Positions 1 to 15,568 are shown, counted from the first letter of the stretch. The stretch is 64,000 nucleotides of DNA from Candidatus Lutacidiplasmatales archaeon (GCA_044451945.1 JBIOKR010000001.1:7672-71671), one strand, 5' to 3'. Program-made: numbers and translations. The notes: generated from the letters alone by a model not told the origin.

Positions 1-2
1 TC

Positions 3-200
3 TTCGAGGGGAAGCAGCCAGCCTACCCCCCATTCCGAAACGTGACGTTCAAACCCGCCCCCGCGGCACCCACCCCGAAGCCGAAGCCCAAGGGTCGGAT
101 GAGGAAGCTGAGTCTGCCCGGGTTCGCAGGCCAAGGAGTCCTCCGAGCGGAAGCGGCCGACCCGAAAGACGACTCTGAACACCCGCCTGAGGGCGACTGA
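3..200 (+). CDS. C-terminal end of an unidentified protein entering from the left edge (partial)
   Basis: Frame is open from base 3 to TGA at 198-200 with mostly G/C at codon position 3. It ends ...PKPKPKGRMRKLSLPGFAGQGVLRAEAADPKDDSEHPPEGD. No motif recognised. Confidence 0.3.
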   Translation, partial: FEGKQPAYPPFRNVTFKPAPAAPTPKPKPKGRMRKLSLPGFAGQGVLRAEAADPKDDSEHPPEGD

Positions 201-236
201 TCACGCCAACTCCCCCTGAAGAAATGGACCTCGGCT

Positions 237-1247
237 ATGCGAACCCTACGTCCGGTACTGGTTTTTTCCGGGCTAGTGATCGCAGTCGCGGGGATAGTTG
301 CCGCGATACTACTCCAGCAGTCCGTTATTGCCGTGACGGCAGTCTTGGCAGCGGTCCTGACCGGTCTATCTCCCAGCTTTGTGCCGTCGCTTTCCGACGA
401 GATTCAGTCGAACAACGACCGCTACAGAAGGCACAGGGAGTATTTCGCCGACGCAATCTTGCCTACAGCCGGAGCGATGATCCTCGTACAGGGCGGTTAT
501 GTCCGGCGGCTCGGAGCAGGTCGTCTCGCTTGGAAGATCGCATCCGACGAAGAGCGCAGTCCAAGTTCACCAGGCCTGGGGGAGGACTACATTCCTGCAT
601 ACGAAGACGTCTTCCTACCTCACATCTCGGGAGTGCACTCAGGTCCAGTCTGGGAGCGGCTGACCACCGCATGGTTCGGCGCGAGATCCGCGGTCGCCTC
701 GTACACGGCCGCTCGCCGGGCCTTTGACGAGACGTTCTTCAGCAAGATGGACCAGCTAACTCGCGACAAAGTCGGCGCTTCGTACGAGGCCGATTGGAGC
801 GACACGCGAATTCAGTTTTCTGACGGAAAGAACCGCCCAAGATACCAAGCTGCCCAGATCCAAGACAACTGCGAATACTGGTATGCCGGGAGATACGAGC
901 TGCCGGGATGGCAGTGGCTCACCCCGGTCGCTAAGCCCCCGAACCCCGCCCAGAATACACCTTGGGAGATTTCGATGGGCACCTCCTCAATCCCATTTGT
1001 CTGGGGTGGGGGGGCTCCAACTGACCTCGACTCCATGGCGGTCCGGTTTGGGGAGGTTCTCGACGCGCTGAGATATGACAAGAACCTCAAGCAACTCTAT
1101 CTCGCCGCGCGAAGCGCCGAGGACGAAGCCAAGCTGGGGCTGAATCCTTTGGAGAAGACGACTCTCGACGCAGCCCACCTCTTGAGGCATGGCCCAGACA
1201 TCCCTGGGGAGTGCGCCTATTGTAAGGCCTGGCGCCCCCGCTTCTGA
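237..1247 (+). CDS. Hypothetical membrane-anchored protein (element-borne)
   Basis: 336-aa ORF with an N-terminal hydrophobic segment VLVFSGLVIAVAGIVAAILLQQSVIAVTAVLAAVL. No catalytic motif recognised. Confidence 0.5.
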   Translation: MRTLRPVLVFSGLVIAVAGIVAAILLQQSVIAVTAVLAAVLTGLSPSFVPSLSDEIQSNNDRYRRHREYFADAILPTAGAMILVQGGYVRRLGAGRLAWKIASDEERSPSSPGLGEDYIPAYEDVFLPHISGVHSGPVWERLTTAWFGARSAVASYTAARRAFDETFFSKMDQLTRDKVGASYEADWSDTRIQFSDGKNRPRYQAAQIQDNCEYWYAGRYELPGWQWLTPVAKPPNPAQNTPWEISMGTSSIPFVWGGGAPTDLDSMAVRFGEVLDALRYDKNLKQLYLAARSAEDEAKLGLNPLEKTTLDAAHLLRHGPDIPGECAYCKAWRPRF

Positions 1248-1934
1248 GGGGGGTTTCCGACCACTCAGGAGAACTGAGGCTCTCGCGGCCGGACCGAAGG
1301 CTTTGACGGATTGGGGCGGGTTAGCCGACAGCCGAAGACGGGATGCCTGCCGGCCGCACGCCATTTCGCCCCCCGCCGCCACTGACGTGCTTTTCGAGGG
1401 AGAAAGTAGGCATTCTCTCGGCATTTGCGGGAGTCCGGCCGGAGTCCAGAGGCTATCCGGAGGGAGTGCAGTGGGTATTCTCGGATACCGACTGCTTTGC
1501 TACGGGACTCCGACTGCGATTGACCTCTCCGGAGGGGCACCTACGTTGGATTCCCTTGCGGCTCGGTCGGTCCCCTGTGCGGGCGGTCGAAATACGCTGG
1601 GAGAAAGGGGTCTCTCGGGTTTAGACCTCCTCGCAAGGTCCGAATGCCCACTTGCGCGACTGGTTCGCATGGTGGGCGTGGGTCGCGTTGGAGGCAATCA
1701 CCGCCGGTGGAGCCGTTTCAGCCGAATTTTCAGGCTCGGCCTTGATGGGCGGCAGGAGCGGGGCTAGAGTGGGGGCTGGAGTCGTTCAGGACGGGGGCTA
1801 GTGGACCTCGGGTCCTGCCCCTGACCAACCGCTGGACTCGGCAACTTCCCAAGCTTCCGCCGTTGTGAGCGGCGGTCGAAATGGGGAGGGGGGAACCGGC
1901 AGAGCTGGTGGATTCGACCAGCCGCTTGGAACTC

Positions 1935-2831
1935 CTACCGAACCAGGATACAGACCGAGGACCGCATCAGAACCAGGTCATTCCAATCCTTCACGAATCG
2001 GCGGCGATCCTTCGCGCCAAGCCGCTTGAGGAACTCGAGGCCGGCGCAATCGTCTGATCCGATTTGCGACTGCTCCCGTTGTATCCGTTCGACAGTTTGG
2101 GCCATCTCCGAGGGGACGTATCGGCCCTGGGTCACCAGCCTCAGTTTCGGATCGAAAGGCGCTCTCCCTTCCGCCAACAGTCCAGCGGCGCGAGCCATCC
2201 TCCGTTCGAATTCGGCCGATGGTCCCCCAAGAACTCCGAGCCCTGTTCTCATCGCCCCTAAGGCTCTCCAACGCCGGCGGAGGTCGCGCTCGAAATCGAC
2301 GCCAAGGTGTCGTTCAGTGGCCCCTCTCGCCCTCCGAGTAGCGCTTCGGATGAGGCGGTCTGCCTCGGTGTCCATTGATTCGACGAGGGACCTCCGAAAC
2401 GTGCCGATTCGTCTCGCAAGGCTCCCGCCAAGACGGGCCTGAAGGCCGGGAGGGAAGCCAAAGACGTACGGCTGCGAGTCGAAACCGAATACTCCGAGTG
2501 GAGCCCCCTCATGAATCCACTTGGCCGCGACCTCGGCCATGATTTCCCGCCTCTGGCTAACTTGGGCAGTCGGCTTGAGAGTGTACCAGGACTCGGCTCC
2601 CTTGCGCGTTCGAGTAAGTTCCTTCGAGCTCTCAAGGCTGTGGAGCGCTCGGCGAAAGGTCTCACGATTGACCGAGGGCCAGCGTTCTTGGATCTCGCCC
2701 CAAAGATCACGCCAACGCAACGGCGGGTAGCATTTCGTCCGGCGCTCGAGTTGAGCGTGCAGGAAGACCCCCTTCACCGCGTTCTTTGCCGTGGCAAGGG
2801 CCGTCCCTTCCCTGATTCTACGCACAAACAA
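1935..2831 (-). CDS. Hypothetical protein with putative winged-helix DNA-binding segment
   Basis: Segment RWRDLWGEIQERWPSVNRETFRRALHSLESSKELTRTRKGAESWYTL looks like a wHTH. The track ORF runs to 2942, but that would overlap the divergent prim-pol gene, so the start was trimmed to TTG 2831 (GTG 2825 is also possible). Confidence 0.45.
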   Translation of the reverse strand: MFVRRIREGTALATAKNAVKGVFLHAQLERRTKCYPPLRWRDLWGEIQERWPSVNRETFRRALHSLESSKELTRTRKGAESWYTLKPTAQVSQRREIMAEVAAKWIHEGAPLGVFGFDSQPYVFGFPPGLQARLGGSLARRIGTFRRSLVESMDTEADRLIRSATRRARGATERHLGVDFERDLRRRWRALGAMRTGLGVLGGPSAEFERRMARAAGLLAEGRAPFDPKLRLVTQGRYVPSEMAQTVERIQREQSQIGSDDCAGLEFLKRLGAKDRRRFVKDWNDLVLMRSSVCILVR

Positions 2832-2874
2832 TGGGCCCTCCCTGTGCGTCCTCTCCTCAAGAAGGACCCACCGT

Positions 2875-5484
2875 ATGTCAGGTCGTCGAGGTGGCGAGGC
2901 CGTGGTACCGACGAGGTTCGAGGGATTCCCGCCCATTCTCATTCACTGCCTCGGCAAGGGCTGGGCGATCTTCCCGGTTCGGGGAAAGGAGCCGCTCACC
3001 GAACACGGGCACAAAGATGCCTCTCGAGACCCGGGGCAATGGATTCGCTGGCTAGACCAGTTCCCCGACTGCGGTTGGGCAGCTCCGACGGGTGAACTCA
3101 ATGGCTTCGACGTCCTCGACGCCGACACCGCCGAGGCCGTGGCCGATCTTTCCGGGCGCCTCCGTCACGGCCCGCGTGTTAGCACCGCCCGCGGTATCCA
3201 CTTCTACTTCAAGCACTCCCCAGGCGCTCGCTCTTGGGCCAAGCGACTCAAGGGTTGCGACTTCAAAGGGGAGGGTGGCTACGTCGTTCTCGCTGGCAGC
3301 CCTCACGAGAGCGGGACTCACTACGAGTGGGTTGAAGGAACGGCGGAGATCGCTCTTCCCGAGACTCCTGCATGGGTATTCGACCTTCACCTCGGGGGTT
3401 TCTCCTCGACCGTACCGGGAGCAAAGTACGTCGAGGGGGAGAGGAACGACCGGCTCTTCCGGCTGGCGTGCGCGATTCAGAGGAAGGGCGGGGAAGTTCT
3501 CAAGGAGGTCCTGCGGGCGAACGATGAGCTCTGCGCACCGCCGCTAGATCACGCCGAGGTCGTTCGGGTCGCAGCCTCCGCGGAGAGGTATCCCCGCGGG
3601 GTGGCAGGGCTCAAATCGCCCGAGTCTCCATCTCGAGGATCAGGGGAGAGCGCTGCCGACCGCTTGGTCGAGATTGCCTCAGGGGCCGAGCTCTTCCACG
3701 ATGACCAGCTCGAGGCCTTCGCCACGGTCGAGGCCAACGGGCACTTCGAGACGTACCGAGTTCGCTCCGTGCCCTTTCGCCGGTGGCTCGTCTTCCGCTA
3801 CAGGTCGGCTTACGGCAAGGTCCCCTCGCCCCATACCGTTCAAGCGGCAATCCTGTCAGTCGAAGCGGCTGCCCAGATAGAAGGGCAATGCGTCAACGTC
3901 CACACGCGGGTTGGATGGGACGGGGAAGCTCTCTGGATTGACCTCGGAGGGCCGACGTGGCGCACTGCAAAGGTGACCACCATGGGCTGGGAGATCTGCG
4001 ACTGGGCTGCCATCAAGTTTGTCAGGGGGAAGTCGCAGGCGCCCCTCCCCATCCCGCGACGCGACGGTTCCATCGCCGCCCTTGTGCCGTTCCTGGGGGC
4101 CGAGAGCGTCGAGGACGAGCACTTCGTCCAGGCGGTTTCATGGCTCGTTGGCAGCTTCCACCCTTTCGGCCCCTACCCCGTCCTCTACCTGCTCGCAGAA
4201 CAGGGCAGTGGGAAGAGTTCAGCCGCGAGATACCTCCGAGGACTAATCGACCCATCATCGATCCCGACCCGGTCGCTTCCTCGTGAGGAACGGGACCTCG
4301 CCGTCGCCGCGCGCGGCTCTTGGGTTCTTTCGTTCGACAACGTCAGCACCATCTCCGGGTGGCTGAGCGATGCGTTGAGTCGCCTCTCCACAGGCGGCGG
4401 TTTCGGAACTCGAACCCTGTACACCGACGACGACGAGACGTTGTTCGGGGGTCGCAGACCAGTGCTGATGAATGGGATACCCCAGGCCATCGTGGAGCCC
4501 GATCTTCGGGACCGGGCGCTCGTGGCCCACTGGCCCCGCATCGCGTTGCGCCGCAGCGTCCGGGACCTGGACGGCGAGTTCGAAGCCAAGGCCGGGGGAA
4601 TCTTCGGAGCGCTCCTTGACGCCCTCTCCTCGGCAATCAGGTCCTTGGCGCTAGAGGCTGCCCAACGAAAGGACCTGCCCCGAATGGCCGACTTTGCCGT
4701 CTGGGTGGAAGCAGCCGAACCGCGGTTGCCTTGGCGCAGTGGGCGATTTGCGGAGGTCTTCGAGTCGACCCGGGCGAGCGCCACTCAGTCGGTGCTTTCC
4801 GAGAGCCTTGTGGCTCAGTCCGTAATCCAGTTCATCTCGGACGTCCGGAATTGGGAAGGCACCGCCACGTCACTCCTCGACGAACTGACGGAAACCTCCG
4901 GGTTCTCACCCCTGACGGGTCGCCGTTCACCGAAGGACTGGCCCGCGAGCCCCAAGACGCTCAGCCAGTCACTGCGCAAGCTCGCGCCGGACCTCCGATC
5001 AGTGGGCATCTGGGTGACCTTCGACAAAGCGGGGAAGGAGCGGACGCGGCTCATTCGGCTGTCAACAGGCCCCGGGCAGAATGACCGCGATTCTGCGTCC
5101 GCTGCGTCCGCTCCGTCCGCCATTGCCACGATCCCTGACGGGGGCGCACCGTTAGCGGCAGGTGCAGAGGCAGACGCAAAGGACGCAGCGGACGCAAGAT
5201 TCCCCCCCTTCTACTCGCGCGACGAGGGGGAGGTCGAGCCCCTCGCCGAAGCTGCGGACCGGGAGCTGTCCAGCGTTTTCGCCCGCTTCGGCCTTGATGG
5301 AGGTTCGGCGTTCCCGGGGCTCCACTTCCTACGCGTCAAGCGGGATCCGGCTAGGGTTGCAGTCGTAGCAGGCGAGAGCGGTCGCCAGTTGGGCCGTCCT
5401 TGGCACGCTCCCGTCCTATCAGGCGGGACAAATCCCCCGGCAATTGATACCGCAACGTCCCGACCCTCAGGGGAGGCCGGATGA
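2875..5484 (+). CDS. Bifunctional DNA primase-polymerase (Prim-Pol) with PriCT-like domain and C-terminal P-loop NTPase/helicase-like domain
   Basis: Prim-Pol motifs: GWAIFPVRGKEP, FDVLDADT, RGIHFYFKH, KGEGGYVVLAGSPHESGTHYEW. PriCT-like: EGERNDRLFRLACAIQRKG...PPLDHAEVVRVAASAERY. Walker A: AEQGSGKSS. Start taken at ATG 2875 (GTG 2902 possible); the track start at 2791 overlaps the divergent gene. Confidence 0.9.
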   Translation: MSGRRGGEAVVPTRFEGFPPILIHCLGKGWAIFPVRGKEPLTEHGHKDASRDPGQWIRWLDQFPDCGWAAPTGELNGFDVLDADTAEAVADLSGRLRHGPRVSTARGIHFYFKHSPGARSWAKRLKGCDFKGEGGYVVLAGSPHESGTHYEWVEGTAEIALPETPAWVFDLHLGGFSSTVPGAKYVEGERNDRLFRLACAIQRKGGEVLKEVLRANDELCAPPLDHAEVVRVAASAERYPRGVAGLKSPESPSRGSGESAADRLVEIASGAELFHDDQLEAFATVEANGHFETYRVRSVPFRRWLVFRYRSAYGKVPSPHTVQAAILSVEAAAQIEGQCVNVHTRVGWDGEALWIDLGGPTWRTAKVTTMGWEICDWAAIKFVRGKSQAPLPIPRRDGSIAALVPFLGAESVEDEHFVQAVSWLVGSFHPFGPYPVLYLLAEQGSGKSSAARYLRGLIDPSSIPTRSLPREERDLAVAARGSWVLSFDNVSTISGWLSDALSRLSTGGGFGTRTLYTDDDETLFGGRRPVLMNGIPQAIVEPDLRDRALVAHWPRIALRRSVRDLDGEFEAKAGGIFGALLDALSSAIRSLALEAAQRKDLPRMADFAVWVEAAEPRLPWRSGRFAEVFESTRASATQSVLSESLVAQSVIQFISDVRNWEGTATSLLDELTETSGFSPLTGRRSPKDWPASPKTLSQSLRKLAPDLRSVGIWVTFDKAGKERTRLIRLSTGPGQNDRDSASAASAPSAIATIPDGGAPLAAGAEADAKDAADARFPPFYSRDEGEVEPLAEAADRELSSVFARFGLDGGSAFPGLHFLRVKRDPARVAVVAGESGRQLGRPWHAPVLSGGTNPPAIDTATSRPSGEAG

Positions 5485-6371
5485 GCGCGGTTGGCCTCGA
5501 CCGCCACCGCGACCTGTTCTATCTCTGCGACCGCTCCTACGTTGGCGGCAAACGGCGGCATTGGGTCCTGGAAGCATACGGAAGGCACCGGCCAACTCTC
5601 TACCCGCCTCAGGTTCGCTCCGGGATCGCCGCCGACCTTCTCTCGCAATTGCCTTCCGAGAGTTTCAGCCTGGTGTATCTCGACCCGCCATACGGAACGA
5701 CCGACGGGGACTGGGACCGCGCCCCCGACTGGAAGGAGCTGGGGAGGGCGGTCGCTCGGCTGCTCAAGCCGACCGGGCAGGTGGTGCTCCACGGCTCAGG
5801 CTCTATGGGCTGCGAGGCCGTCGCCTCGTTCCTCGGGCCGCTCAGGTATCGCTTCGAGATAGTCTGGGTCAAGACCTCGGAGAACGGCTGCCTGATGCCT
5901 ACATCTTGGATTACCGACTTCGAGCCTCTCAGGGCTTTCGAGCAGATTCACGTCATGGCTAAGTCCGGCTCCAAGACGACCGAGCTCACCTTCAACCGAG
6001 GCGCAATCCACCGCCGCGTACCGGCCGGGCCTCGCTCAGCACAGAAGCGACCACCGAGTCATCAACTCAAAGGGGGCTGGAGCGGTAGGCTGCGCCCTCG
6101 GCGCGACGGCTATGGGTTTCCGGTCAACGTGATCTTCCAAGCCCCGGCCCGGACGGGGGACCTCTACGCCGCGAAACCGGAAGACCTGACCCGGCAACTG
6201 GTTTCGGCGCTCACCAAGCCCGGCGACTGGATACTCGACCCGTTCGCGGGGAGCGGCACCACCCTGCGGGTCGCGTACCGGCTCGGGCGACGCTCTCTCG
6301 GAATCGAAGCCTCCCCGGTGAACTTCGCTCTCCTCAAGCGACGGCTCTCCGAACTAGGGCAGGGGTCCTGA
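5481..6371 (+). CDS. DNA methyltransferase, beta-class N6-adenine/N4-cytosine type (orphan)
   Basis: Motif IV LVYLDPPYGT lies N-terminal to motif I LDPFAGSGTT, which is beta-class order. The ATG overlaps the prim-pol stop (ATGA). No nuclease gene is adjacent. Confidence 0.85.
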   Translation: MSAVGLDRHRDLFYLCDRSYVGGKRRHWVLEAYGRHRPTLYPPQVRSGIAADLLSQLPSESFSLVYLDPPYGTTDGDWDRAPDWKELGRAVARLLKPTGQVVLHGSGSMGCEAVASFLGPLRYRFEIVWVKTSENGCLMPTSWITDFEPLRAFEQIHVMAKSGSKTTELTFNRGAIHRRVPAGPRSAQKRPPSHQLKGGWSGRLRPRRDGYGFPVNVIFQAPARTGDLYAAKPEDLTRQLVSALTKPGDWILDPFAGSGTTLRVAYRLGRRSLGIEASPVNFALLKRRLSELGQGS

Positions 6372-6385
6372 TGCTGGTGGGTCCG

Positions 6386-6895
6386 TCACTGGAGGCGGAG
6401 TGGGGCGGAGTTCGCCCCGGTCTCCTCCGTCGGGAAGACCGCCTTGGCAGCCTCGAACTGCTTCGGGCTAAGGATGTACGACATTCCATTTCGGCGGCCA
6501 GCGAGGCCGAAGTCCCCCGGCGGGCGAGGGCGGAGGACCAGCGAGTCGCGGGGAATAGTGAACTCCGCCCCGCTCGATCTCCGCACGACAATCCCGGAGG
6601 GGATCACCCGAACCGCGGATGGTCGGAATACCATCCAGAAGTAGAGGTCAATGAGGGCCGAAGCGACCGCGGTGATGATGACGACAGCGAGAGCGACCTC
6701 GAACCCGTACTGGGGAATGAGGACCTTGAACCAAAGAAATGCGAGAACAATCACGAGGACGGGAGCGCTGCCGACGACCTGGTAGACAAAGAGCGGGTGC
6801 GTTCGCTCGGTCGGAATCCAGCCATCGGCCCCAATCCCCATTCGGAAGAGTCCGAATCGCCCGGGGTAGAAAAACCATGGCTCCTGCCAGCGCAA
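6386..6895 (-). CDS. Two-TM membrane protein with C-terminal soluble (PH-like?) domain
   Basis: Hydrophobic helices APVLVIVLAFLWFKVLI and VALAVVIITAVASALIDLYFWMVF, then about 80 aa of soluble sequence. The antisense frame here is acidic junk. A start at the internal ATG 6841 is possible. Confidence 0.6.
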   Translation of the reverse strand: MRWQEPWFFYPGRFGLFRMGIGADGWIPTERTHPLFVYQVVGSAPVLVIVLAFLWFKVLIPQYGFEVALAVVIITAVASALIDLYFWMVFRPSAVRVIPSGIVVRRSSGAEFTIPRDSLVLRPRPPGDFGLAGRRNGMSYILSPKQFEAAKAVFPTEETGANSAPLRLQ

Positions 6896-7549
6896 GTCCC
6901 TATAGCTTGTGCCATCTACGCGCGGGTCAGCACCTCAGACCAGACGACGGAGCCTCAGGTAGCAGCCCTCATGGCGGAGGCGGAGCGCCTCGGGCTCACC
7001 GTCCCCTCGGAACGCGTCTACATTGACGATGGCTTCTCCGGTTCCCTCGCCGAGCGGCCCGCATTCGACCGACTGAAAGCTGCGATCGAGGCGAGGCAGG
7101 TTATGGCCGTACTCGTCACCAAGCTTGACCGGCTCGGCCGCTCGGTCCGAGGCGTCCTCGAGTTCTACGACTCCGCGGAGGTTGCAGGCGTTCGCATCGT
7201 GGTGATCGACCAAGGGATGGACACCGCGACCCCGGGCGGGCGGCTCATGCGAACGATCTTGGCGGCGATGGCCGAATTCGAGCGCGACCTGATCGTAGAC
7301 CGAACGAAGAGCCGGATGGCCGCCTTCAAGGCGGGAATGCCCACCCGGTCCGGGCGGCCGGTAGGTCGGCCCCGTCGAGTGACTCGCGAGAAGGTCGAGG
7401 AAGCGCGCCGACTGCGGTCCACCAACCCGCCCCTCAAGTGGGCGACCGTCGCTCAGCGAGTGGGGCTGCCGAAAGAAACCCTGCGGAAGGCCGTCCGCGA
7501 GGCCCAGCGTTCCACGGCCGCGGGTGTTGCCGCGGGAACAATGCAGTAG
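6797..7549 (+). CDS. Serine recombinase (resolvase/invertase family)
   Basis: Catalytic-Ser motif CAIYARVSTSDQ, LVTKLDRLGRS, AEFERDLI, and a C-terminal HTH (WATVAQRVGLPKETLRKAV). The track start at 6371 adds a junk-like 140-aa extension over the opposite-strand gene. GTG 6797 is the nearest in-frame start, so the start is uncertain. Confidence 0.85.
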   Translation: MRSLGRNPAIGPNPHSEESESPGVEKPWLLPAQVPIACAIYARVSTSDQTTEPQVAALMAEAERLGLTVPSERVYIDDGFSGSLAERPAFDRLKAAIEARQVMAVLVTKLDRLGRSVRGVLEFYDSAEVAGVRIVVIDQGMDTATPGGRLMRTILAAMAEFERDLIVDRTKSRMAAFKAGMPTRSGRPVGRPRRVTREKVEEARRLRSTNPPLKWATVAQRVGLPKETLRKAVREAQRSTAAGVAAGTMQ

Positions 7550-7686
7550 AGGGATTGGACCATGCTGGAAAGCCCCTACCCCAGACCCCCAAGCGGGAAC
7601 AACCCTCAGTTGGGGGAAACTCCCGCCGACCGGGGAGGCGGGGCCGGGGAGCCTTCAGCGGCGGAAACCGCCCCCTTGTCCCCATG

Positions 7687-7923
7687 TCAGGAGTCGGCCC
7701 AGAACCCCTTCCGGCTTAGCGCGATAAGCGTCGCTCCCAACACCGGGGCCACTGGAGCGACCGCCCAAGCGGAAGGGTTCCACAGCAGAATCGCGAGGAC
7801 CACGTACGCGCCTAACGCGAGGAGTCCCGCGCCGGCAATCAAGGCGATCCGCCCACGCAAGCGGGAGTATCTCCGAAACTCCTCTGGGTCCATCGAGTCC
7901 AGACTCGGAACCAGTGCGCCCAT
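7687..7923 (-). CDS. Small two-TM membrane protein
   Basis: 78 aa with hydrophobic segments IALIAGAGLLALGAYVVLAILLW and VAPVAPVLGATLIAL. Codon position 3 is G/C-rich. Confidence 0.5.
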   Translation of the reverse strand: MGALVPSLDSMDPEEFRRYSRLRGRIALIAGAGLLALGAYVVLAILLWNPSAWAVAPVAPVLGATLIALSRKGFWADS

Positions 7924-8020
7924 TTACCTGCCTAGCGCCCTCCGACCCGCCCCGGCGCCCTCGGAATCGCCACGACAGCATTCATTAGTCGGGAGGTCGA
8001 CCGCCCTCTCGGAGGAACCC

Positions 8021-8983
8021 TTGCCCTCAACGGCAAGGGGTGGGAGAGAGAGGATCGAGTGGTATGCGGAGAAGCGGAAAGCAGGGATATCGAGGCGGCA
8101 CTACTTGGAGATTCGGCGGGTCTTGTCAGAGGCCGCCGATCTCCTCGAACAGGTAGGACTAGCGTGCCACCCGGGACGGTTCGGCGACGCCGAATTGGAC
8201 GCGCTACTGAACGGCGGTTGGCGCCCAGCCACCTCCGAGCAGGTGGGCTTGGCGCCGAGGACCAGGGCGTACAACGTCTGCCTTCTGAACGGCTTTCTCA
8301 AGGCCCACAGCAACCTGGCGGTGGAAAACCGGCACCTCCACTTCCCGAACGTGGGAGTTCGGCGTCGCGACTACCTGAAGCCGGACCAAGGTGCCCGGCT
8401 CCTGACGGTCGCCGAGACGCAGGGCATCCAGAGCCACGCGGCCGTGGCCTTGGAGATGCTGATGGGTCTTCGGAGATGCGAGATGCTCCGTGTGCGGACG
8501 ACAGAGTTGGACCTCGATGCGTATCCCGATGCGCTGCGCGTCCACGGCTCGCTGAAAGGCCAATCGGGCGAAAAGATACGGAAAGTCCCGTGGCACGACG
8601 AGGTTCGTCGGATCGTCCCGGAAGTTCTAGCCCACCGAAATCAGGAGGCGCGCAGGCTGAAGGGGCCCGATTCGGGGTTTGCCTTTGTCCATCGGACCTC
8701 CCAAGGGCTCAGGGTGTGGTCCAAGTCCTACGTGGACCGCATGTGGATGGGGCCGGCCTTCGACGCAGCGGGTATCAAGCGACCCGACGGGCTAAACCAC
8801 GTGTTGCGGCGCACGTTCGGCAGGACCCTGTGGGACAACGGGGTCCCCATCGAGAAGATCGCCTACCTGATGGGGCACGAGGATACTCGCGAGACGAAGA
8901 AATACCTCGGCCTGAACGAAGAGGACGCGCTGGAATCGATGCGCGTTCTGAACCGGGTCTTCCCCGCCCGGGTCGTCGCGTAG
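8021..8983 (+). CDS. Tyrosine recombinase/integrase
   Basis: Catalytic signature: GLRRCEMLRV (Arg), HVLRRTFG (His-x-x-Arg), LMGHED (His), KKYLG (Tyr). The track ORF starts at 7562 but overlaps the opposite-strand small gene. TTG 8021 is proposed as start (TTG 8105 possible). Confidence 0.85.
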   Translation: MPSTARGGRERIEWYAEKRKAGISRRHYLEIRRVLSEAADLLEQVGLACHPGRFGDAELDALLNGGWRPATSEQVGLAPRTRAYNVCLLNGFLKAHSNLAVENRHLHFPNVGVRRRDYLKPDQGARLLTVAETQGIQSHAAVALEMLMGLRRCEMLRVRTTELDLDAYPDALRVHGSLKGQSGEKIRKVPWHDEVRRIVPEVLAHRNQEARRLKGPDSGFAFVHRTSQGLRVWSKSYVDRMWMGPAFDAAGIKRPDGLNHVLRRTFGRTLWDNGVPIEKIAYLMGHEDTRETKKYLGLNEEDALESMRVLNRVFPARVVA

Positions 8984-9028
8984 TTGGAAGGTGGTTCAAT
9001 TGGTCCGAGACGGCAGAAACGCTGACGG

Positions 9029-9053
9029 AGCGGTTCGAATCCGCTCGGGGCTA
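9029..9053 (+). repeat. tRNA 3'-end fragment (T-arm + acceptor 3' strand + discriminator); att-like copy 1
   Basis: AGCGG-TTCGAAT-CCGCT forms a perfect T-arm, followed by CGGGGCT and A. No complementary AGCCCCG 5' acceptor strand and no D/anticodon arms lie upstream, so this is a fragment. The core CGAATCCGCTCGGGGCTA is at 9036-9053. Confidence 0.8.
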
Positions 9054-9054
9054 T

Positions 9055-9077
9055 GGTCCGAATCCGACCTGGGCTAT
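9055..9077 (+). repeat. Degenerate tandem copy of the tRNA 3'-end unit (att-like copy 2)
   Basis: GGTCCGAATCCGACCTGGGCTAT matches 19/23 positions of GGTTCGAATCCGCTCGGGGCTAT (9032-9054) and sits exactly 23 nt downstream. Confidence 0.6.
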
Positions 9078-9135
9078 TCCTTCCTGAGGCAGTTGCAAGG
9101 AGGGGTCGAGCGCCCCATTAAAGTAAAGGGAACGC

Positions 9136-9143
9136 TTTATTAA
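9136..9143 (+). promoter_or_regulatory. TATA-like box for the ArsR-family gene (leaderless geometry)
   Basis: TTTATTAA is centred about 26 nt upstream of ATG 9165 in an A/T-rich gap. Confidence 0.35.
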
Positions 9144-9164
9144 GCGGATACTTTACCAGTAGCC

Positions 9165-9473
9165 ATGGATGCCTTTCGCGCCATGGCGGAACCGCGCCGG
9201 CGCAAGGTTGTGGAGATTCTTGCCCATAGAGGGACCCTTAGCGCGTCGCAGATCTGCGATGAGTTCGATGTGACTCCTCAGGCGATTTCCCAACACCTAA
9301 GGGTACTTCGTGAGGCGAATGTGATCCATATGGAGAGGAGAGCCCAGCGAAGGCTCTACACCTTCAATCCTAAGTCGACGACCCAGATGCAAGTGTGGGC
9401 CGCGGAATTGGCGAAGTTGTGGAACCGCAGGCTCGACCGACTCGAGAAGATTCTGAAAGAGGAGGAAGCATGA
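9165..9473 (+). CDS. ArsR/SmtB-family HTH transcriptional regulator
   Basis: EPRRRKVVEILAHRGTLSASQICDEFDVTPQAISQHLRVLREANVIHMERRAQRRLY is a typical ArsR wHTH. Confidence 0.85.
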   Translation: MDAFRAMAEPRRRKVVEILAHRGTLSASQICDEFDVTPQAISQHLRVLREANVIHMERRAQRRLYTFNPKSTTQMQVWAAELAKLWNRRLDRLEKILKEEEA

Positions 9474-9961
9474 ATCAAGAGAGGGGGAAGGGGTCAATGG
9501 ACAGAGAACGACGCGACGCGCAAGTGTCGCGGGACTTCGACTTCCCGCGGGCGATTGTCTTCAACCTGCTCACCGACCCGAAGAAAGGGGCGGTCTCTTG
9601 GAGCCCCGAGGGGGCGGTCAATCTCGTCTTCGAGTTGGACCCGAGGCCTGGTGGGACGATACGAATTCACGACCGCGACAGCGACGGCAACGTTGCCAAG
9701 ACGATCGGAACCGTCATGGAGATTGTAGTTCCCGAACTCCTCGTCGTCAGGACCGCAACGACGCCTCCAACAGGCACGGCCCCGTGGGAGGCGCTGCAGA
9801 CGCTGAGGTTCGAAGAGATCAGCCCGAGGAAAACGCGAGTGACCATCCTGGTAAAGGTTCTCGCGACCGGCTCCTTCCCCGGAGGCATTGAGCCCCTCGA
9901 GCGAGCGTACCAGGGAGGATGGGGAGAGGTCCTCGAGCACTTGCAAAGTGCGCTGCGCTAG
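9470..9961 (+). CDS. SRPBCC/AHSA1-like domain protein
   Basis: VSRDFDFPRAIVFNLLTDPKK...IRIHDRDSDGN... resembles the Aha1/SRPBCC proteins usually paired with ArsR. ATG 9470 overlaps the ArsR stop (ATGA). Confidence 0.65.
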   Translation: MNQERGKGSMDRERRDAQVSRDFDFPRAIVFNLLTDPKKGAVSWSPEGAVNLVFELDPRPGGTIRIHDRDSDGNVAKTIGTVMEIVVPELLVVRTATTPPTGTAPWEALQTLRFEEISPRKTRVTILVKVLATGSFPGGIEPLERAYQGGWGEVLEHLQSALR

Positions 9962-9968
9962 GTCCGTC

Positions 9969-10206
9969 CTAGTCGTTCAGCCGAAGCCGCTCGTCCCTAC
10001 CAGGCGACCCCCAAACCAGGCGGTACAGCCAAGGCAGGTGCTCTATGGGAACCTTGCGAGGGCACCCGGGTGTGCCTGTCGATCGGAGGGCGTGAGGGAG
10101 GTTGTCTGAAGTCCGCTGAGAGGCCTTGAGTTGGGCCCGCAAGATCATCCCGACGATCCCGTCCCCTCCCGTCAGCAGTGTGTTCAGTTTCCTCGGAAAG
10201 AGCCGG
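9969..10206 (-). pseudogene. Possible relic of a tyrosine integrase C-terminus
   Basis: HALRSTGTPGCPRKVPIEHLPWLYRLVWGSPGRDERLRLND loosely parallels HVLRRTFGRTLWDNGVPIEKIAYLMGHEDTRETKKYLGLN of the intact integrase. The catalytic His/Tyr positions are not conserved. The region ends at an att-like copy. Confidence 0.25.
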
Positions 10207-10224
10207 CGAATCCGGTCGGGGCTA
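10200..10224 (+). repeat. att-like copy 3 of the tRNA 3'-end sequence
   Basis: GAGCCGGCGAATCCGGTCGGGGCTA. The core at 10207-10224 matches 17/18 positions of the 18-mer. Its flanks resemble those of the copy at 15905. Confidence 0.6.
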
Positions 10225-10392
10225 GATCCCACCTCCCGCCGTCCCGCTACGGCGCTCCGCCGACGGTTCGTGGAGAACCGAGCCGGCCGCAAGGAGTGGG
10301 TTCTCGGCCAATCCCACGGGCAGCTGGCGACTGCCTGACTAAATGACCGACTTGATATACCCTGGATCCCATGGCCAACATGGAGGACCGCT

Positions 10393-10608
10393 ATGGCCAC
10401 TAGTAGCATCGCCGTGAGCCAAGAGACCCGAAAGCTCCTCGAGACGCTCAAGACCGGGGGTGAGACCTACGACGATGTCATTCGGGCCCTGGTGGCGACC
10501 CACCCGACTCGGTTGACCTGGGCGGAGATTGCCAGGCGGATACGCGAAGGTGAGCCGGAGGGCCCGATAGAGGAACTCATCGCCAAGAGCCGGAAGCAAC
10601 CCTACTGA
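10393..10608 (+). CDS. Putative antitoxin (archaeal VapB-like, pfam02697-type)
   Basis: IAVSQETRKLLETLKTGGETYDDVIRALV matches the I-x-V-x2-ET-x3-L-x2-LK-x2-GESYDDVI pattern of that family. 71 aa. The stop overlaps the start of the next gene. Confidence 0.65.
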   Translation: MATSSIAVSQETRKLLETLKTGGETYDDVIRALVATHPTRLTWAEIARRIREGEPEGPIEELIAKSRKQPY

Positions 10609-10964
10609 TGGCCTTCCGGATTCGTCGAAAGCTCTCGAGCGATTCGGAATTCTTGGCGCTGCCTCCCGAAGTGCGGGAGGTCTTCATCGTGGTCTTCCGG
10701 GAGTTGGCCGTATCCAAGAGCCCCCGTCTGAGAGGTCAAGGGTACTTCATCGAGGAGCTGCGCCAGCGACAGAAGATCGCTCCGGAGGGGATCTTCTCCG
10801 TACACGTCACGGAGCTCCCCCGCGAGGAGTGGTTCTGGCGAGGGGCGTTCTTCCGGCGACGAAGCGATCTCGTCTTCTTTGGGTTCGGACCCCGGTTCCC
10901 GGATTTCTACGTCCGCATGGCCCGGGCCCGAGCCGCCATGTCCCGGGTCGACGATGAACGATAG
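10608..10964 (+). CDS. Putative toxin, RelE/ParE-like
   Basis: 118 aa, 1-nt overlap with the antitoxin (TGATG). The C-terminal WRGAFFRRRSDLVFFGFGPRFPDFY resembles the RelE/ParE YRxxY...ixilxigxR..xY core. The assignment is tentative. Confidence 0.45.
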   Translation: MAFRIRRKLSSDSEFLALPPEVREVFIVVFRELAVSKSPRLRGQGYFIEELRQRQKIAPEGIFSVHVTELPREEWFWRGAFFRRRSDLVFFGFGPRFPDFYVRMARARAAMSRVDDER

Positions 10965-10979
10965 GGGTGCCGATTCTAA

Positions 10980-11597
10980 TTACCCGGGCCAATCGAGTGG
11001 GCAGCCGACCGAACCGAAGTCCGGCGAGACGAGGGACGTCAAAAACCTGTCCCCGGTAAACCGGATGTTCTGGAGGTCGGTGTCGAAGACCAGCTTGACG
11101 CTGGCATATGGGGTAGGGGGAATCGCCCAGTTACCCCCGAGCGTCCACGTCGATAGGGTCCAATTCCGAACTCCGACTATTGCGCCGGTTGAGCTGAGTG
11201 CGGTCACCCGCGCTGAGGGGCCCAACGCGACGGGAAGGCCGGATTGGATATTGGAGTTGTTCGTCGGTAGGCCCAAGACTTCAAAACGAAAGTCCGAGAG
11301 GATCCTCCCGGCGACGCCGGGGGTGCTGAGGCCGTATGAGTAGCAGTTCTCACCGGCCAAGTACTGACAGCCAGTTTGTCCAGAAGCTACGTAACCGAGC
11401 GGAGCGAGTGACCTTGCAGGGGGGCCCGGCCCGAGTTGTTCGTTAGGCACTAGTTGTCCCACCCACCACAGGTTGACGCAAACGGCCGCGGCAAGCGCGA
11501 GGGCCGCCACGGAGAACACGATGATAGACCGACGACGGGACTGTTTTCGGCCGGAACGGCTACCGTGCGAGGACGACTCGTCCGTCATAGCCCCCAA
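10980..11597 (-). CDS. Hypothetical N-terminally anchored extracellular protein
   Basis: Basic N-terminus followed by the TM helix SIIVFSVAALALAAAVCVNLWW, then a Ser/Thr/Gly-rich ectodomain. Confidence 0.55.
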   Translation of the reverse strand: MGAMTDESSSHGSRSGRKQSRRRSIIVFSVAALALAAAVCVNLWWVGQLVPNEQLGPGPPARSLAPLGYVASGQTGCQYLAGENCYSYGLSTPGVAGRILSDFRFEVLGLPTNNSNIQSGLPVALGPSARVTALSSTGAIVGVRNWTLSTWTLGGNWAIPPTPYASVKLVFDTDLQNIRFTGDRFLTSLVSPDFGSVGCPLDWPG

Positions 11598-11863
11598 CGC
11601 CTTGACTTAGAGGCCACCATCCATAACCTCATTGTGCGCAGAGCTTGATGCGGCACCGCGGTTCTGCTAAAGGCGGCGTGCGTAAAGGGTGGGTTTGCTG
11701 ATCCCCCCCGGGGGTTCGGATTGGGTCTCCGATGCGGTTGGGGCGGACCTGATTCCCCCGCTGGTTCAAGAAGCAGGACCGATCCTGCGCCCTTCCAGCG
11801 AGACTCCACGAGTTCACCGGTCGGAGCGTGTACGCACCCGGCAAACTCTAAGGTAAACCGAGC

Positions 11864-12355
11864 ATGTCAACCGCCGTGGGAGATTACCCGGACGATACCC
11901 CATGGCTGAGGAGTTCCATCATCTCCTTTTCCACCATTCTCTGGACCATCGGAATCTCGCTCGTGATCACCGTCCCGATTGCGGCAGCGTGGGCAGCAGG
12001 GTGGGTCGAGCTGGCATCGAAGGGAGTCCCGGATTTTCTGATACTCGGCGTCATCTATGTGGTGGCGTGGTTGGTCACTCTATTGGCAATGACCGTCCTC
12101 CTGAACCGCGACAGGAAGGTTCTGGCAGTCATGGCGGTTCATCGGGGTCTTAAGTTCGAACTGGCCTCCTCCGCACCCGAGCTCGTACCGTGGGAGGACC
12201 TCCTCAGAGCGTCCTCGGAGCCAAAGGATCGGTGGGTGCGCCTGACGTACCGATGCAGAGACGGAACCGGGACGGAGGGTTTCTTCCTCTTGAGCCACTA
12301 CCAGTTCGAGGGGGTGGCAAGGCATCCCCTGTTTCCCGCTCGCATCCACCATTAG
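11864..12355 (+). CDS. Two-TM membrane protein, distant paralogue of 6386-6895
   Basis: Two hydrophobic helices followed by about 80 aa soluble. The C-terminal GFFLLSHYQFEGVARHPLFP parallels MSYILSPKQFEAAKAVFP in the element-borne protein. Confidence 0.55.
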   Translation: MSTAVGDYPDDTPWLRSSIISFSTILWTIGISLVITVPIAAAWAAGWVELASKGVPDFLILGVIYVVAWLVTLLAMTVLLNRDRKVLAVMAVHRGLKFELASSAPELVPWEDLLRASSEPKDRWVRLTYRCRDGTGTEGFFLLSHYQFEGVARHPLFPARIHH

Positions 12356-12471
12356 CGTGCGTTCGGTGAGGGGGAGCCCGTGTCCCAGGACCTGCTACCA
12401 ATGAAGCTCATGCCCCACCCAAGAGACTCTACGATCTGTGGCGCTCGTGACCGGGCGATAAGGAGAGGTTT

Positions 12472-13026
12472 TTGACCTCACCCGAGAGTGCATCTTCCCA
12501 TCCGAACCGAGGAGAGCCGGTGTCTCAGTCGGTCCCAGGGTCCTCGTCGCCTCGGAAGATTGGCCGGGGGCTGGGATACGCCGGTCTGGCGATCTTGGGC
12601 TCCGCCGTCATCTTCGTGGCGGCTCTCTGGTCGATTTACGCGGGGGCATTGGGACCACGGGCCGTGGGCGGGCCACCGCCAATCGTTGTCGTGGCGACGG
12701 CGGGAACGACATGGAAGGTGAGGGCGGGTGGACACGAAGATGCCGGACCGATCGATATCAGCTCGGATACCTCTTGGCGAATGTACGGGACTTTCGCCTC
12801 CGCTAACGGGATTGCGGCGTACGTCCTGACCGCGAGCGACTTTGCACGATGGAATGGCTCACAATCTCCCCCAGCCGCCTACTCATGGAGCTCGGGGGGG
12901 AGTGTTGCTTCTGGGACTTTCGAAAATCTAATCCTCCCATCGGATACGTACTACATCGTCTGGGACAACACGAACCCGACCCTCCCGTCCTCGGTTGAAA
13001 TCACGGCGATGATCTATGCTTCATAG
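12472..13026 (+). CDS. Hypothetical N-terminally anchored extracellular protein
   Basis: TTG start, TM helix LGYAGLAILGSAVIFVAALWSIYAG, then a beta-rich ectodomain. Confidence 0.5.
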   Translation: MTSPESASSHPNRGEPVSQSVPGSSSPRKIGRGLGYAGLAILGSAVIFVAALWSIYAGALGPRAVGGPPPIVVVATAGTTWKVRAGGHEDAGPIDISSDTSWRMYGTFASANGIAAYVLTASDFARWNGSQSPPAAYSWSSGGSVASGTFENLILPSDTYYIVWDNTNPTLPSSVEITAMIYAS

Positions 13027-13387
13027 CCCGAGCTCGCACCGCCTGCGCAAACGGTCTGGTTGAGTGAAGGCTCGGGAGAGGTTCCAGCAGGGGATAGAAA
13101 TCGAGTCCCTTTCCAAAGGGCTCCCCCTTGCTTGTCCGGCGAGGAAGCGAATCGGATTGAGGCAGCTCGAGTGCTCGGGCTTTGGGTTGCTAGGGGGCGC
13201 GCCAAGACTTACGTCGACCCTGACCCGTTCAAGGAGAGGGCGACGGAGATCGGGAAGACGCTGGGAGGAAGTCGGAGGACGGGTTCAGTCGACGGAGCGA
13301 GGTGCGCGCCTGGAGCGGGCCACGTGTTCGACGTGGCGCGCCTTCTCCGGAGGAACTTTATCCTGAAGGGTATGAGAGCAACTCGGA

Positions 13388-13909
13388 ATGAAGGCATCCT
13401 CCAAACACCCTACGGAGACCCCGCGCAAGGTGCACTCGCCGAGTGTGACGTACGTTGAGGACAGAGGGGCCGTCTACAACGCGCCGATCGAAGTCGTTTG
13501 GGATTTCATGGAGAAGGACGAGACGTTCCATCCCAAGGCCCACAATGCTGCGGTGCGGAACTTCGAAGGGAGGGCCCTTTCCGAGGTTACGACCCTCCTT
13601 AGCTATGAGAGGCGAAAGGGCGGCCGATGGGAGAAGATGGTCTGTCGCATGACTGCAATTCGTCCTGCGGCGAGGATCCAGGAGGACCTCGATGGCCCGT
13701 TCGCAGGGTCGAAGACGGTGTTCCTCTACACGCCACAGGGCGAACGAACGGTCGTCGATGTATTCGGCTACATGCAGTCTCCCGAGCTCACCCCCGCGGA
13801 GATCAAACGGGACAGGAAGGAGACCTGGGCGAATGCCTACTCGGAGGACTTACCCTATTTCCGCCGCTATTCCAAGCAACACCCCTCCGTCCTGGTGAAG
13901 CGCAGGTAA
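13388..13909 (+). CDS. Hypothetical protein, possibly SRPBCC-fold
   Basis: 173 aa. AVYNAPIEVVWDFMEKDETFHP is SRPBCC-like. The assignment is weak. Confidence 0.5.
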   Translation: MKASSKHPTETPRKVHSPSVTYVEDRGAVYNAPIEVVWDFMEKDETFHPKAHNAAVRNFEGRALSEVTTLLSYERRKGGRWEKMVCRMTAIRPAARIQEDLDGPFAGSKTVFLYTPQGERTVVDVFGYMQSPELTPAEIKRDRKETWANAYSEDLPYFRRYSKQHPSVLVKRR

Positions 13910-14026
13910 ACATCTCGCTGTGGCCGACAGCCTGATGTTCCTGCACTTTCGATCCACCCCCGGGTCTTGATAGGCGTGGGTTTCTGCTGGTGAGGGTTCG
14001 CGACCCGTTTCGGTCCCCCCGAGTTC

Positions 14027-14974
14027 TCAGAAGATCACGGGCGGCCGAAGCTTCTCATGGCCCGTGGTTCCGCCTGCCGAGAACGTAGCAGCCGACCGGC
14101 CCAGGTGGTACATGAACGATTCCGCCGCTACGGATACGTTGAGTTCCACTACCACCATGTAACGGTGGCTCCCGTTGAAGCTGCCGTTGAGGAACCAGGA
14201 TGGAGAAAACGTGCCGACGAGCCGGGAGGAGGCACCGAAGCTGTAGTTCTCCGAAACCCAAATCGAGTAGTTTGAAGACCAGTAGGACCGGTTCGAATAT
14301 GCCCCGAAGTACCCGTAGCTGATCGTCTGCACCCCCGAAGCGAGGTGGACCCCCGACCAAGAATTGGCGGGGTGGATCGCCCCGCCCGTGGTGAGGTCCA
14401 GGAGCTCCGCATACCCGGCAACGTTGACGACCGCCTCCACGTCGCACCACTGGTAGGCGAAGGTGTAGGTGAAATTCGTGTGCGCGTAGATGAAGTGGTA
14501 TCGCGTCACGTTGAATGGGCATCCGAACACCGGCTTGCCGAACGAGGCGTTGGTCGACCCTGTCAGGGCAATGGACCAGCCCACCTCGACTCCGTGATCG
14601 GAGGCGTTCAAGCTCACCGGTACTCCGATGGAGAGTTGCTCCTCGGAGAGGGCGTACGAATCCGCGGCAGCCCCACCCCTCCCGGTAGGACATGCAAGGG
14701 CCCGACCCGAGGCCGACCAGCCTCCAACGTGGGTGGATCGATTGAACGCCACCGGTGCGGAGGTTTGATGCGAGCAGTTCCAGACCTCGATCGTGTGGCT
14801 CCGAGAAACGGACAACGGGGCTGGTAACCCGGAGCCGGAGACGGGCACGGACGAGGCTACGACGACGGCTCCCACGAGGACAAGCACCCCAATGGTCGAC
14901 CCCGGCCCGAGGAAGATCACACCCTCCAGGACGCCTTGGGAACGGTGCCCGAGGTTGCGTTGTTTCGTCCTCAT
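14027..14974 (-). CDS. Secreted/anchored sequon-rich protein (paralogue of 21770-22579)
   Basis: N-terminal TM helix VIFLGPGSTIGVLVLVGAVVVA and 12 N-x-S/T sequons in 315 aa. It shares the motifs LLD.T......PANSW and a C-terminal ...S.AG.....KL....I.F with the 269-aa protein at 21770-22579. Confidence 0.65.
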   Translation of the reverse strand: MRTKQRNLGHRSQGVLEGVIFLGPGSTIGVLVLVGAVVVASSVPVSGSGLPAPLSVSRSHTIEVWNCSHQTSAPVAFNRSTHVGGWSASGRALACPTGRGGAAADSYALSEEQLSIGVPVSLNASDHGVEVGWSIALTGSTNASFGKPVFGCPFNVTRYHFIYAHTNFTYTFAYQWCDVEAVVNVAGYAELLDLTTGGAIHPANSWSGVHLASGVQTISYGYFGAYSNRSYWSSNYSIWVSENYSFGASSRLVGTFSPSWFLNGSFNGSHRYMVVVELNVSVAAESFMYHLGRSAATFSAGGTTGHEKLRPPVIF

Positions 14975-15133
14975 CCCGGTCCGAGAACCGAGACCTCTCG
15001 CAAGCTAAACGCTTTCCGGACCGGACTCGCATCGATACGCTCGGAGCGAGTTCACCGTGAGTTCCCCCGAAAGCGAGCTTAACCATCCCTTTCCGATGGG
15101 GAGGGCCCCTCACGATGAGCACCTTCTCGCCGC

Positions 15134-15568
15134 TCACTCCATCGGGACGTGCCGGTCGGAGGATTGGAATCGCTTTGGAGGTTCCCAGAGTTCCAGTCGG
15201 TTTCCCTCCGGGTCCTCGGCCCAGCCAAACTTCCCGTACGCGGACGGTTCCGCATCGGGAGACACGCGTACCCCTTTCGCCCGAAGCTGCGTCAACAGCT
15301 GGTCGAGATTCGCTACGCGATAGTTCACCTCGGCAGACGGCCGGCCCCGACCCCACTCACGATCGCCGGCTCCGAGCGCCGCCCAGAGCGTGGTCCCCGC
15401 GCGCTTCCTACCTCTTGGACTAATCCACTTGTAGACGGCCATCTGATCCTTGATTTCCAACCCGAGATGGTCCCTGTACCACGCTGCGAGCTCCTCCGGA
15501 TTGCGAGCTCGTAGGAATACTCCGCCAATCCCTGTAACCCGTCCGACCTTCCGCTGCTTGCTCGCCAC
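15134..15568 (-). CDS. VOC-family (glyoxalase/bleomycin-resistance fold) protein
   Basis: VTGIGGVFLRARNPEELAAWYRDHLGLE ... YGKFGWAEDPEGNRLELWEP is a typical VOC beta-alpha-beta-beta-beta module. Confidence 0.8.
   Translation of the reverse strand: MASKQRKVGRVTGIGGVFLRARNPEELAAWYRDHLGLEIKDQMAVYKWISPRGRKRAGTTLWAALGAGDREWGRGRPSAEVNYRVANLDQLLTQLRAKGVRVSPDAEPSAYGKFGWAEDPEGNRLELWEPPKRFQSSDRHVPME

Follow-up and report, generated by a model that had tools for sequence, protein, structure and literature searches.

The stretch of DNA analyzed here, hereafter the window, comprises 64,000 nucleotides from a Candidatus Lutacidiplasmatales archaeon (GCA_044451945.1 JBIOKR010000001.1:7672-71671), and its first 9,053 positions are probably the larger part of a 13.5-kb plasmid-like cryptic integrated element (CIE) of a Thermoplasmata archaeon. 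The element presents every feature by which CIEs are recognized: an integrase and attachment (att) repeats, with no virus hallmark and no conjugation gene found between its att sites. As such, it is a clean and fairly ordinary case of the cryptic integrated elements already described in archaea. A plasmid-like lifestyle is favored because the replication protein has a counterpart on a free plasmid and because no virion or conjugation gene was found.

The window corresponds to positions 7672-71671 of contig C1, which runs on for 7.7 kb leftward. Locus L001 covers C1 1-18000, so that an L001 coordinate equals the window position plus 7671; positions below are those of the window unless another sequence is named. 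The source genome (G000) is 2.28 Mb long in 87 contigs, with a completeness of 94% and a G+C content of 67.7-67.8%. Its small subunit rRNA fits the archaeal model over the full length (1483 bits), a model that also fires on bacterial controls, no bacterial model having been run. The close relatives with public names are called Thermoplasmata archaeon, and the host had already been guessed to belong there. A haloarchaeal host, considered in view of the high G+C and of weak matches to haloarchaeal DUF families, was rejected on these names and because the proteins are not acidic. A bacterial host, considered because every match from the genome collection was bacterial, was rejected on the rRNA match (weak by itself), on the same names and because those matches span the NTPase domain only. 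The other G numbers designate genomes of the same order, of which the set holds 186; the unpublished genomes G161-G163 were counted in the tallies only and are the basis of no specific claim.

The right border, attR, lies at 9029-9053 on the + strand (L001 16700-16724) and reproduces 25 nt from the 3′ end of tRNA-Gln(TTG) without any mismatch. The original prediction had placed the end of the element at 9053, which is exactly where this copy stops, and its left end outside the window, a leftward extension having been set beforehand as the test. This extension revealed an intact tRNA-Gln(TTG) at L001 3121-3195, detected by ARAGORN and Rfam, whose last 25 nt form the paired attL (C1 3169-3193). 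The element thus begins 4.5 kb further left than the window, and the spacing of 13,531 bp between attL and attR gives its length. An initiator tRNA had been proposed as the target and has to be replaced by tRNA-Gln(TTG). The attR repeat found no match in 100 shuffles of the window, and only two copies of the 25-nt repeat exist across the whole genome. At tRNA-Gln, the G+C content drops from about 70% to 61-63%; over the element it averages 63.3%, the genome mean being 67.7% (standard deviation 1.7%, windows of equal size), which places the element among the lowest 2.6% of windows. The first 164 bp past tRNA-Gln (L001 3194-3357) are found, 77-89% identical, directly after tRNA-Gln in G158, G066, G064, G150 and G044, and this stretch is probably a conserved left att arm of elements specific for tRNA-Gln. 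In G065, the same stretch was seen after a partial tRNA copy. A second tRNA reported by ARAGORN in the left flank, an 88-nt tRNA-Glu(CTC) at L001 2018-2105, lies within a major facilitator superfamily transporter gene, has no Rfam match at the gathering score and is probably a false positive.

Further copies of the att core follow the element. A degenerate tandem copy, about 72% identical, is located at 9055-9077 (+ strand); its sequence occurs in no other tRNA of the genome, and it is probably the relic of an older integration. Together with the copies at 10207-10224 (17 of 18 positions) and 15905-15922 (18 of 18), it indicates that tRNA-Gln is a re-used hot spot. The genes flanking this array on the right are not found beside tRNA-Gln in the 13 relatives examined, and the pre-insertion site therefore cannot be reconstructed by synteny. 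Likewise, no gene of the element adjoins tRNA-Gln in these 13 relatives, except for a weak and partial serine-recombinase-like match in G182.

The integrase gene directly adjoins attR. The original prediction of a tyrosine integrase and a serine recombinase was confirmed by Pfam for both enzymes. The 473-aa open reading frame (ORF) at 7562-8983 (+ strand) contains a Phage_integrase domain (PF00589) at aa 271-453 (E 2e-15, 57.4 bits for a cut-off of 27.1) and also matches a PHROG integrase family (E 3e-21), and the catalytic R...HxxR...Y residues were seen by eye. This ORF is uninterrupted and its stop codon lies 45 bp before attR. SSV-type integrase genes are split by integration; the gene of the present element differs from them in this respect. 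Homologues with 83-90% amino acid identity adjoin the same att core in G059 and G158, as expected of an integrase that would be specific for this site.

Just upstream, 6797..7549 (+ strand) contains the gene for a small, resolvase/invertase-type serine recombinase with a C-terminal helix-turn-helix and a length of about 215-250 aa. Its Resolvase domain (Pfam E 4e-38, 131 bits) spans 6911-7330, that is aa 181-320 of a long ORF at 6371-7549, and it carries a YARVSTSDQ motif. Homologues with 34-67% identity occupy the same position in related elements, where the genes encode 235-246 aa. The stop codon of the preceding methyltransferase gene overlaps an ATG (TGATG, 6369-6373) which opens a 392-aa ORF reading into the recombinase. 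The first 180 residues of this ORF are of low complexity and lie antisense to a better-scoring ORF for a small protein with two transmembrane (TM) helices (6386-6895, - strand, up to 169 aa). As codon-position G+C favors this antisense ORF (third-position G+C 0.78, against 0.63 in the opposite frame), the recombinase most likely begins near 6797-6911 rather than at 6371. No match to the 2-TM ORF was found among the PHROG and PADLOC families. It had been grouped with 11864-12355 as a single 2-TM family; BLASTP does not sustain this grouping (E 1.2). An invertible segment at the serine recombinase was considered and ruled out, as no convincing inverted repeats were found around the gene. Homologues of the serine recombinase were also observed 0.2-2 kb downstream of tRNA-Gln in G064 (L061 1240-1848) and G182 (L044 2808-3125, partial), with 37-47% identity; no homologue of the tyrosine integrase of the element was detected in the stretches fetched from these two genomes.

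The replication protein is encoded at 2791-5484 (+ strand), with a probable start codon at the ATG in position 2875. It combines an archaeo-eukaryotic primase (AEP) domain of the Prim-Pol family (PF09250, aa 52-195, E 9e-27, 94.9 bits for a cut-off of 22.8), a PriCT_1 domain (aa 213-267, E 1.7e-7, 31.2 bits for a cut-off of 21.1) and a P-loop NTPase of about 460 aa, in which a Walker A motif (GSGKS) and a Walker B-like motif are present in the C-terminal half of the protein. The three-part architecture that had been proposed was thus recovered with Pfam domains and Walker motifs. GSGKS and a downstream D/N are invariant or nearly so across 27 homologues. In place of the helicase that had also been proposed for this fusion, the sequence shows a P-loop NTPase which belongs to no named helicase family: the domain has no match among Pfam, NCBIfam, PHROG, PADLOC or PDB sequences. 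Comparison by hhalign with the D5-type fusions of relatives gave a weak similarity (E 1.8e-3, probability 15%) over the region preceding Walker A, which corresponds to D5_N.

The whole protein is present in 17 of the 186 genomes of the order, with a full-length identity of at most 44%, and is not the conserved chromosomal gene that would have spoken against an integrated element. Several relatives carry PrimPol and PriCT_1 domains (55-61% identical) fused instead to a D5_N-DUF5906 helicase. Stand-alone homologues of the NTPase, with 36-43% identity, are encoded beside integrases and tRNAs in metagenome-assembled genomes (MAGs) of many bacterial phyla, and the matches from the genome collection, all of them bacterial, span the NTPase domain only. 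Elsewhere, this NTPase is fused to Toprim/DnaG, zf-CHC2, DUF3854 or RepB-primase domains. A tailed-prophage contig of IMG/VR (L059, IMGVR_UViG_3300048588_000882) has PrimPol and the same NTPase (40% identity) as its replication module; this contig has 69% G+C and was seen to encode a large terminase, a ParB-methyltransferase and two integrase-like genes. A quick midpoint-rooted tree groups the PrimPol-fused NTPases of Thermoplasmata in a single clade (SH-aLRT 99) that branches within bacterial sequences, a topology that would fit a single fusion.

A beta-class N6/N4 DNA methyltransferase of 296 aa follows at 5481-6371 (+ strand; Pfam N6_N4_Mtase, E 5.8e-24, 85.7 bits). Its start overlaps the stop of the PrimPol gene in the sequence ATGA at 5481-5484, and its product has the motif order of the beta class, with DPPY (aa 68) ahead of FAGSG (aa 255); both the ATGA overlap and the class had been predicted correctly. 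Methyltransferases with 52-75% identity follow the replication gene or precede the serine recombinase in G008 and G041. The enzyme had also been described as an orphan. This is true locally, and only locally, because a methyltransferase-Mrr nuclease fusion of 613 aa is encoded 5.5 kb upstream (C1/L001 6030-7871, + strand), the 3′ end of its gene occupying window positions 1-200. The fusion protein matches N6_N4_Mtase at aa 64-389 (E 8e-43, 147 bits), Mrr_cat at aa 447-521 (E 8e-7, 29.6 bits) and the PADLOC family MTase_II (E 5e-67). Its nuclease part contains a DSGIDG...IQVK motif (PD-D/QxK; D...QxK), and the "inactive REase" family NA-iREase1 matches with an equal score. No CRISPR array turned up in a crude scan of the genome, and short high-identity matches in relatives, examined as possible spacers, proved to be the conserved methyltransferase motif.

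Three further pairs of a beta-class methyltransferase and a small serine recombinase were observed in the source genome, at C45 167-1815, C17 29818-31493 and C7 53820-57201 (L069, L070 and L071, respectively). Their methyltransferases are about 55% and their recombinases 34-42% identical to those of the element. The pair on C17 follows a tRNA-Thr and a tyrosine integrase, and the pair on C7 is near a tRNA-Met. Integrated elements of this lineage thus seem to use the methyltransferase-serine recombinase pair repeatedly as a module.

The absence of capsid, portal and terminase genes noticed at first was upheld within the att borders: ORFs of at least about 125 aa between the att sites gave no Pfam or PHROG match to a capsid, portal, terminase or packaging ATPase. 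In particular, none of the genes for TerL, portal and HK97-fold capsid typical of a tailed provirus (Caudoviricetes) was found inside the 13.5-kb att-bounded block. As a positive control, the same search recovered TerL in the IMG/VR contig L059. Also, no Pfam match to VirB4/VirD4-type ATPases or to a relaxase was obtained, and the sole P-loop protein is the NTPase fused to the primase.

Related elements exist in other genomes of the order. One is a 12.6-kb block in G008, bounded by 16-nt repeats of the 3′ end of a tRNA-Ser, which encodes a PrimPol-NTPase (41% identity), a methyltransferase (52%) and a serine recombinase (37%) in the same order, together with a Vsr-like nuclease and a second methyltransferase. 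G041 has the methyltransferase (75%), the serine recombinase (67%) and an integrase-like gene, again in the same order, and in G037, G138 and G051 PrimPol is followed by the serine recombinase. In G059 and G044, remnants of 3-3.5 kb are present, with an integrase or a fragment of one. The order PrimPol-(methyltransferase)-serine recombinase is thus recurrent in relatives. G008, G041 and G037 share this replication-methyltransferase-recombinase core only, and no common candidate structural gene was found among them.

CIEs were defined for archaea, namely Thaumarchaeota, by Krupovic et al. (2019; PMC6563490). Like them, the present element has an integrase and att sites in a tRNA gene, is shorter than 20 kb and lacks recognizable hallmarks of viruses or conjugation; it also shares with them a replication protein of the primpol-helicase type (found in some CIEs), putative restriction-modification and other cargo, and tandem att arrays. 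Such arrays, which arise from the re-use of one att site, are known for elements with tyrosine recombinases (PMC6563490). Unlike the elements of Thaumarchaeota, it resides in a Thermoplasmata host, the NTPase fused to its PrimPol is not a recognizable superfamily 3 helicase, and its conserved core includes a small serine recombinase besides the tyrosine integrase.

A free counterpart is plasmid pH6Ac of Methanothrix harundinacea 6Ac (NC_016637.1), a circular molecule of similar size (11,991 bp). Its AEP-type protein of 1124 aa carries this P-loop NTPase domain too, with 37% identity over aa 285-771, and the plasmid likewise encodes a site-specific DNA methyltransferase. However, pH6Ac exists free and has neither an integrase nor a serine recombinase in its annotation, the host is from another class, and no similarity between its N-terminal primase region and that of the element was detectable by BLAST. 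This protein, annotated as "hypothetical protein" (L084 1608-4982), shows AEP-like N-terminal motifs and a Walker A motif, GEQGSGKS; on these motifs, it is probably the unannotated replication protein of the plasmid.

AEPs fused to several uncharacterized ATPase families, which were predicted to be novel helicases, have been described by Kazlauskas et al. (2018; PMC5862659). The replication protein of the element has the same succession of AEP, PriCT-1 and P-loop ATPase as the fusions of the pRN1 ORF904 type in plasmids and viruses (PMC5862659). Unlike the families named in that study (D5/SF3, VirE, DUF927, DUF3987, RepA, DnaB, MCM), its ATPase gives no match to them at Pfam thresholds, and only a weak D5_N-like profile trace was seen. 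The bacterial islets integrated at tRNA genes, e.g., in MAGs of Rubrobacteraceae and Terriglobia, are similar in that a homologous NTPase (36-43% identity) is found beside a tyrosine integrase and a tRNA. In contrast to the element, the bacterial NTPase stands alone (545-720 aa) or is carried on other primase domains, not on PrimPol and PriCT_1. The pTN3/TKV-like elements of Thermococcales are likewise plasmid- or virus-like elements integrated in euryarchaeal tRNA genes; no sequence relationship with them turned up, no direct comparison having been made.

From this gene content, the following life cycle can be proposed. The integrase would have recombined a circular element, at an attP carrying the 3′ end of the tRNA, with the chromosomal gene; integration would have rebuilt tRNA-Gln and left the displaced end as attR, and the same integrase would excise the element. 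During an episomal stage, the PrimPol-PriCT_1-NTPase protein would prime and unwind DNA at an origin, perhaps in or near a 690-bp non-coding stretch described below, and host polymerases would complete replication. A divergently encoded winged-helix protein may regulate or mark the replication module, the translationally coupled methyltransferase would modify the DNA of the element, and the small serine recombinase would resolve multimers. The left third would be cargo, consisting of the methyltransferase-Mrr fusion, a ClpP-like SDH protease, a GAF-like membrane protein and a 2-TM protein.

Among the remaining genes, those left of the window encode the ClpP-like SDH protease (L001 3625-4713, - strand), which falls in a PHROG family of unknown function (E 6e-34), the GAF-like protein with N-terminal TM helices (L001 4914-5552) and the product of a 127-aa ORF.

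The proteins at 237-1247 and 1935-2831 had been put forward as recognizable by no motif and possibly as lineage-specific functions of the element. The first part of this proposal stands, as neither has a match in Pfam, NCBIfam, PHROG or PADLOC; the second does not, as their relatives occur in low-G+C islands without PrimPol and they are not specific to this family of elements. The gene at 237-1247 (+ strand) encodes a membrane protein of 336 aa with two N-terminal TM helices. Six homologues were found among 5.8 billion proteins, all with a C-terminal HGPDIPGECxYC motif. AlphaFold2 (AF2) predicts a bundle of helices into which a small beta element is inserted (pLDDT 78), and Foldseek retrieved nothing for this model from PDB or BFVD at E ≤0.001; the best fold, that of generic four-helix-bundle sensor domains (Z 7.3), is below the level that is meaningful for helical proteins and was discarded. 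Full-length members of this family occur in the order only in G000, G177 and G114, and the copies of the last two lie on the margin of low-G+C islands that lack PrimPol, methyltransferase and recombinase genes. This protein is probably cargo.

The second gene, 1935-2942 (- strand), divergent from the PrimPol gene, has an uncertain start and encodes a winged-helix DNA-binding protein of up to 335 aa, with 11 remote homologues among 1.84 billion representatives. Its AF2 model shows a confident winged helix-turn-helix core (aa 50-125, pLDDT 85-94), in agreement with what had been suspected from the sequence, and all its Foldseek matches are winged-helix proteins (MarR, PadR, Cdt1 WH, SSV1 F-93; probability about 1, E 0.03-0.3). 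Its relatives lie in low-G+C islands of dark matter and do not adjoin PrimPol. From its position, the gene may encode a regulator of the divergent replication operon or a protein that binds its origin. Between these two genes, about 690 bp (1248-1934, no strand assigned) lack a convincing ORF: codon-position G+C shows no coding frame, and no Rfam family matches at the gathering score. This stretch is a candidate regulatory or origin region; an origin could not be pinpointed in it, only weak repeats and no A+T-rich dip being present.

Several observations weigh against a plasmid-like cryptic element. Repeat and A+T scans identified no origin; the helicase function of the NTPase is a prediction from its sequence, and the resolvase role of the serine recombinase follows from its size and position. 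Neither an excised nor an episomal form was observed: the predicted attP junction and the right arm were absent from two public contig collections, one metagenomic and one viral, which says little. The replication module also serves a tailed prophage (L059), and five ORFs, two of them for membrane proteins, have no assignable function, so that a virion module could have escaped recognition. The element might accordingly be read as a provirus, or as a helper-dependent satellite, of an archaeal virus that contains a membrane but no tail, with the proteins of 237-1247 and 6386-6895 and the GAF-like TM protein as its structural proteins. A length of 13.5 kb and the combination of an integrase, a PrimPol-type Rep and a winged-helix protein would suit small archaeal viruses and satellites as well, three membrane proteins without assignable function are at hand, the replication module is shared with a tailed prophage and the ClpP-like protease belongs to a PHROG family. 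However, no PHROG, Pfam or fold match to a capsid, spike, portal, terminase or packaging ATPase was obtained; of the unknown ORFs, the fold search covered those at 237-1247 and 1935-2942, and the model for the former matches no fold of a virus protein. Also, the 2-TM family of 237-1247 is unlinked to PrimPol or integrase in relatives, and the related elements of G008, G041 and G037 have no candidate structural gene in common. We consider a viral nature improbable.

Another reading would make the block a fixed genomic island, possibly a defence island, that is a relic which was once mobile and is now retained because of its cargo, restriction-modification included. The tandem att array with decayed islands downstream of tRNA-Gln, the short remnants in G059 and G044 and the methyltransferase-Mrr nuclease fusion on board are what such a history could leave behind. 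Yet the att repeats agree at all 25 nt, the G+C content has not been ameliorated to the host value, and the integrase, serine recombinase, PrimPol-NTPase and methyltransferase are all full-length frames with catalytic motifs, and we give this reading a small chance of being correct. That the genes are ordinary host genes beside a coincidental tRNA-like repeat is almost certainly wrong: the sole point in its favor is the location of the block in a chromosomal contig, whereas the repeat is unmatched in the shuffles and adjoined by the integrase, the G+C is deviant, PrimPol is absent from 169 of the 186 genomes and, save for the weak match in G182, no element gene is found beside tRNA-Gln in the 13 relatives. 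A plasmid-like cryptic integrated element is thus the reading that we retain.

The uncultured high-G+C Thermoplasmata lineage concerned, which seems to have had no plasmid or virus available so far, thereby gains a cleanly delimited mobile element that appears to be intact. The exact att sites, the tRNA-Gln-specific integrase and the compact replication module are raw material for a genetic vector. The analysis also points to a widespread primase-associated NTPase without a family name or a solved structure, used alike by a free archaeal plasmid, by bacterial islets and by a tailed prophage. The methyltransferase-serine recombinase pair, present four times in the genome, merits a functional test. 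Current views are not overturned, as both this kind of element and the modular AEP-ATPase fusions were already described. A bolder proposal, of which we are doubtful, is that the PrimPol-(methyltransferase)-small serine recombinase cassette defines a lineage-specific replicon family of Thermoplasmata, that its NTPase represents a new family of replicative helicases shared with bacterial islets, plasmids and phages, and that some members, possibly including this one, are viruses or satellites whose unrecognizable membrane proteins act as virion proteins.

Downstream of the element, the att array (9054-15922) brackets two decayed islands of low G+C (60-62%). One contains ArsR and AHSA1 genes; the other, which is without an integrase, contains a VapB-like gene and several ORFs without a Pfam match.

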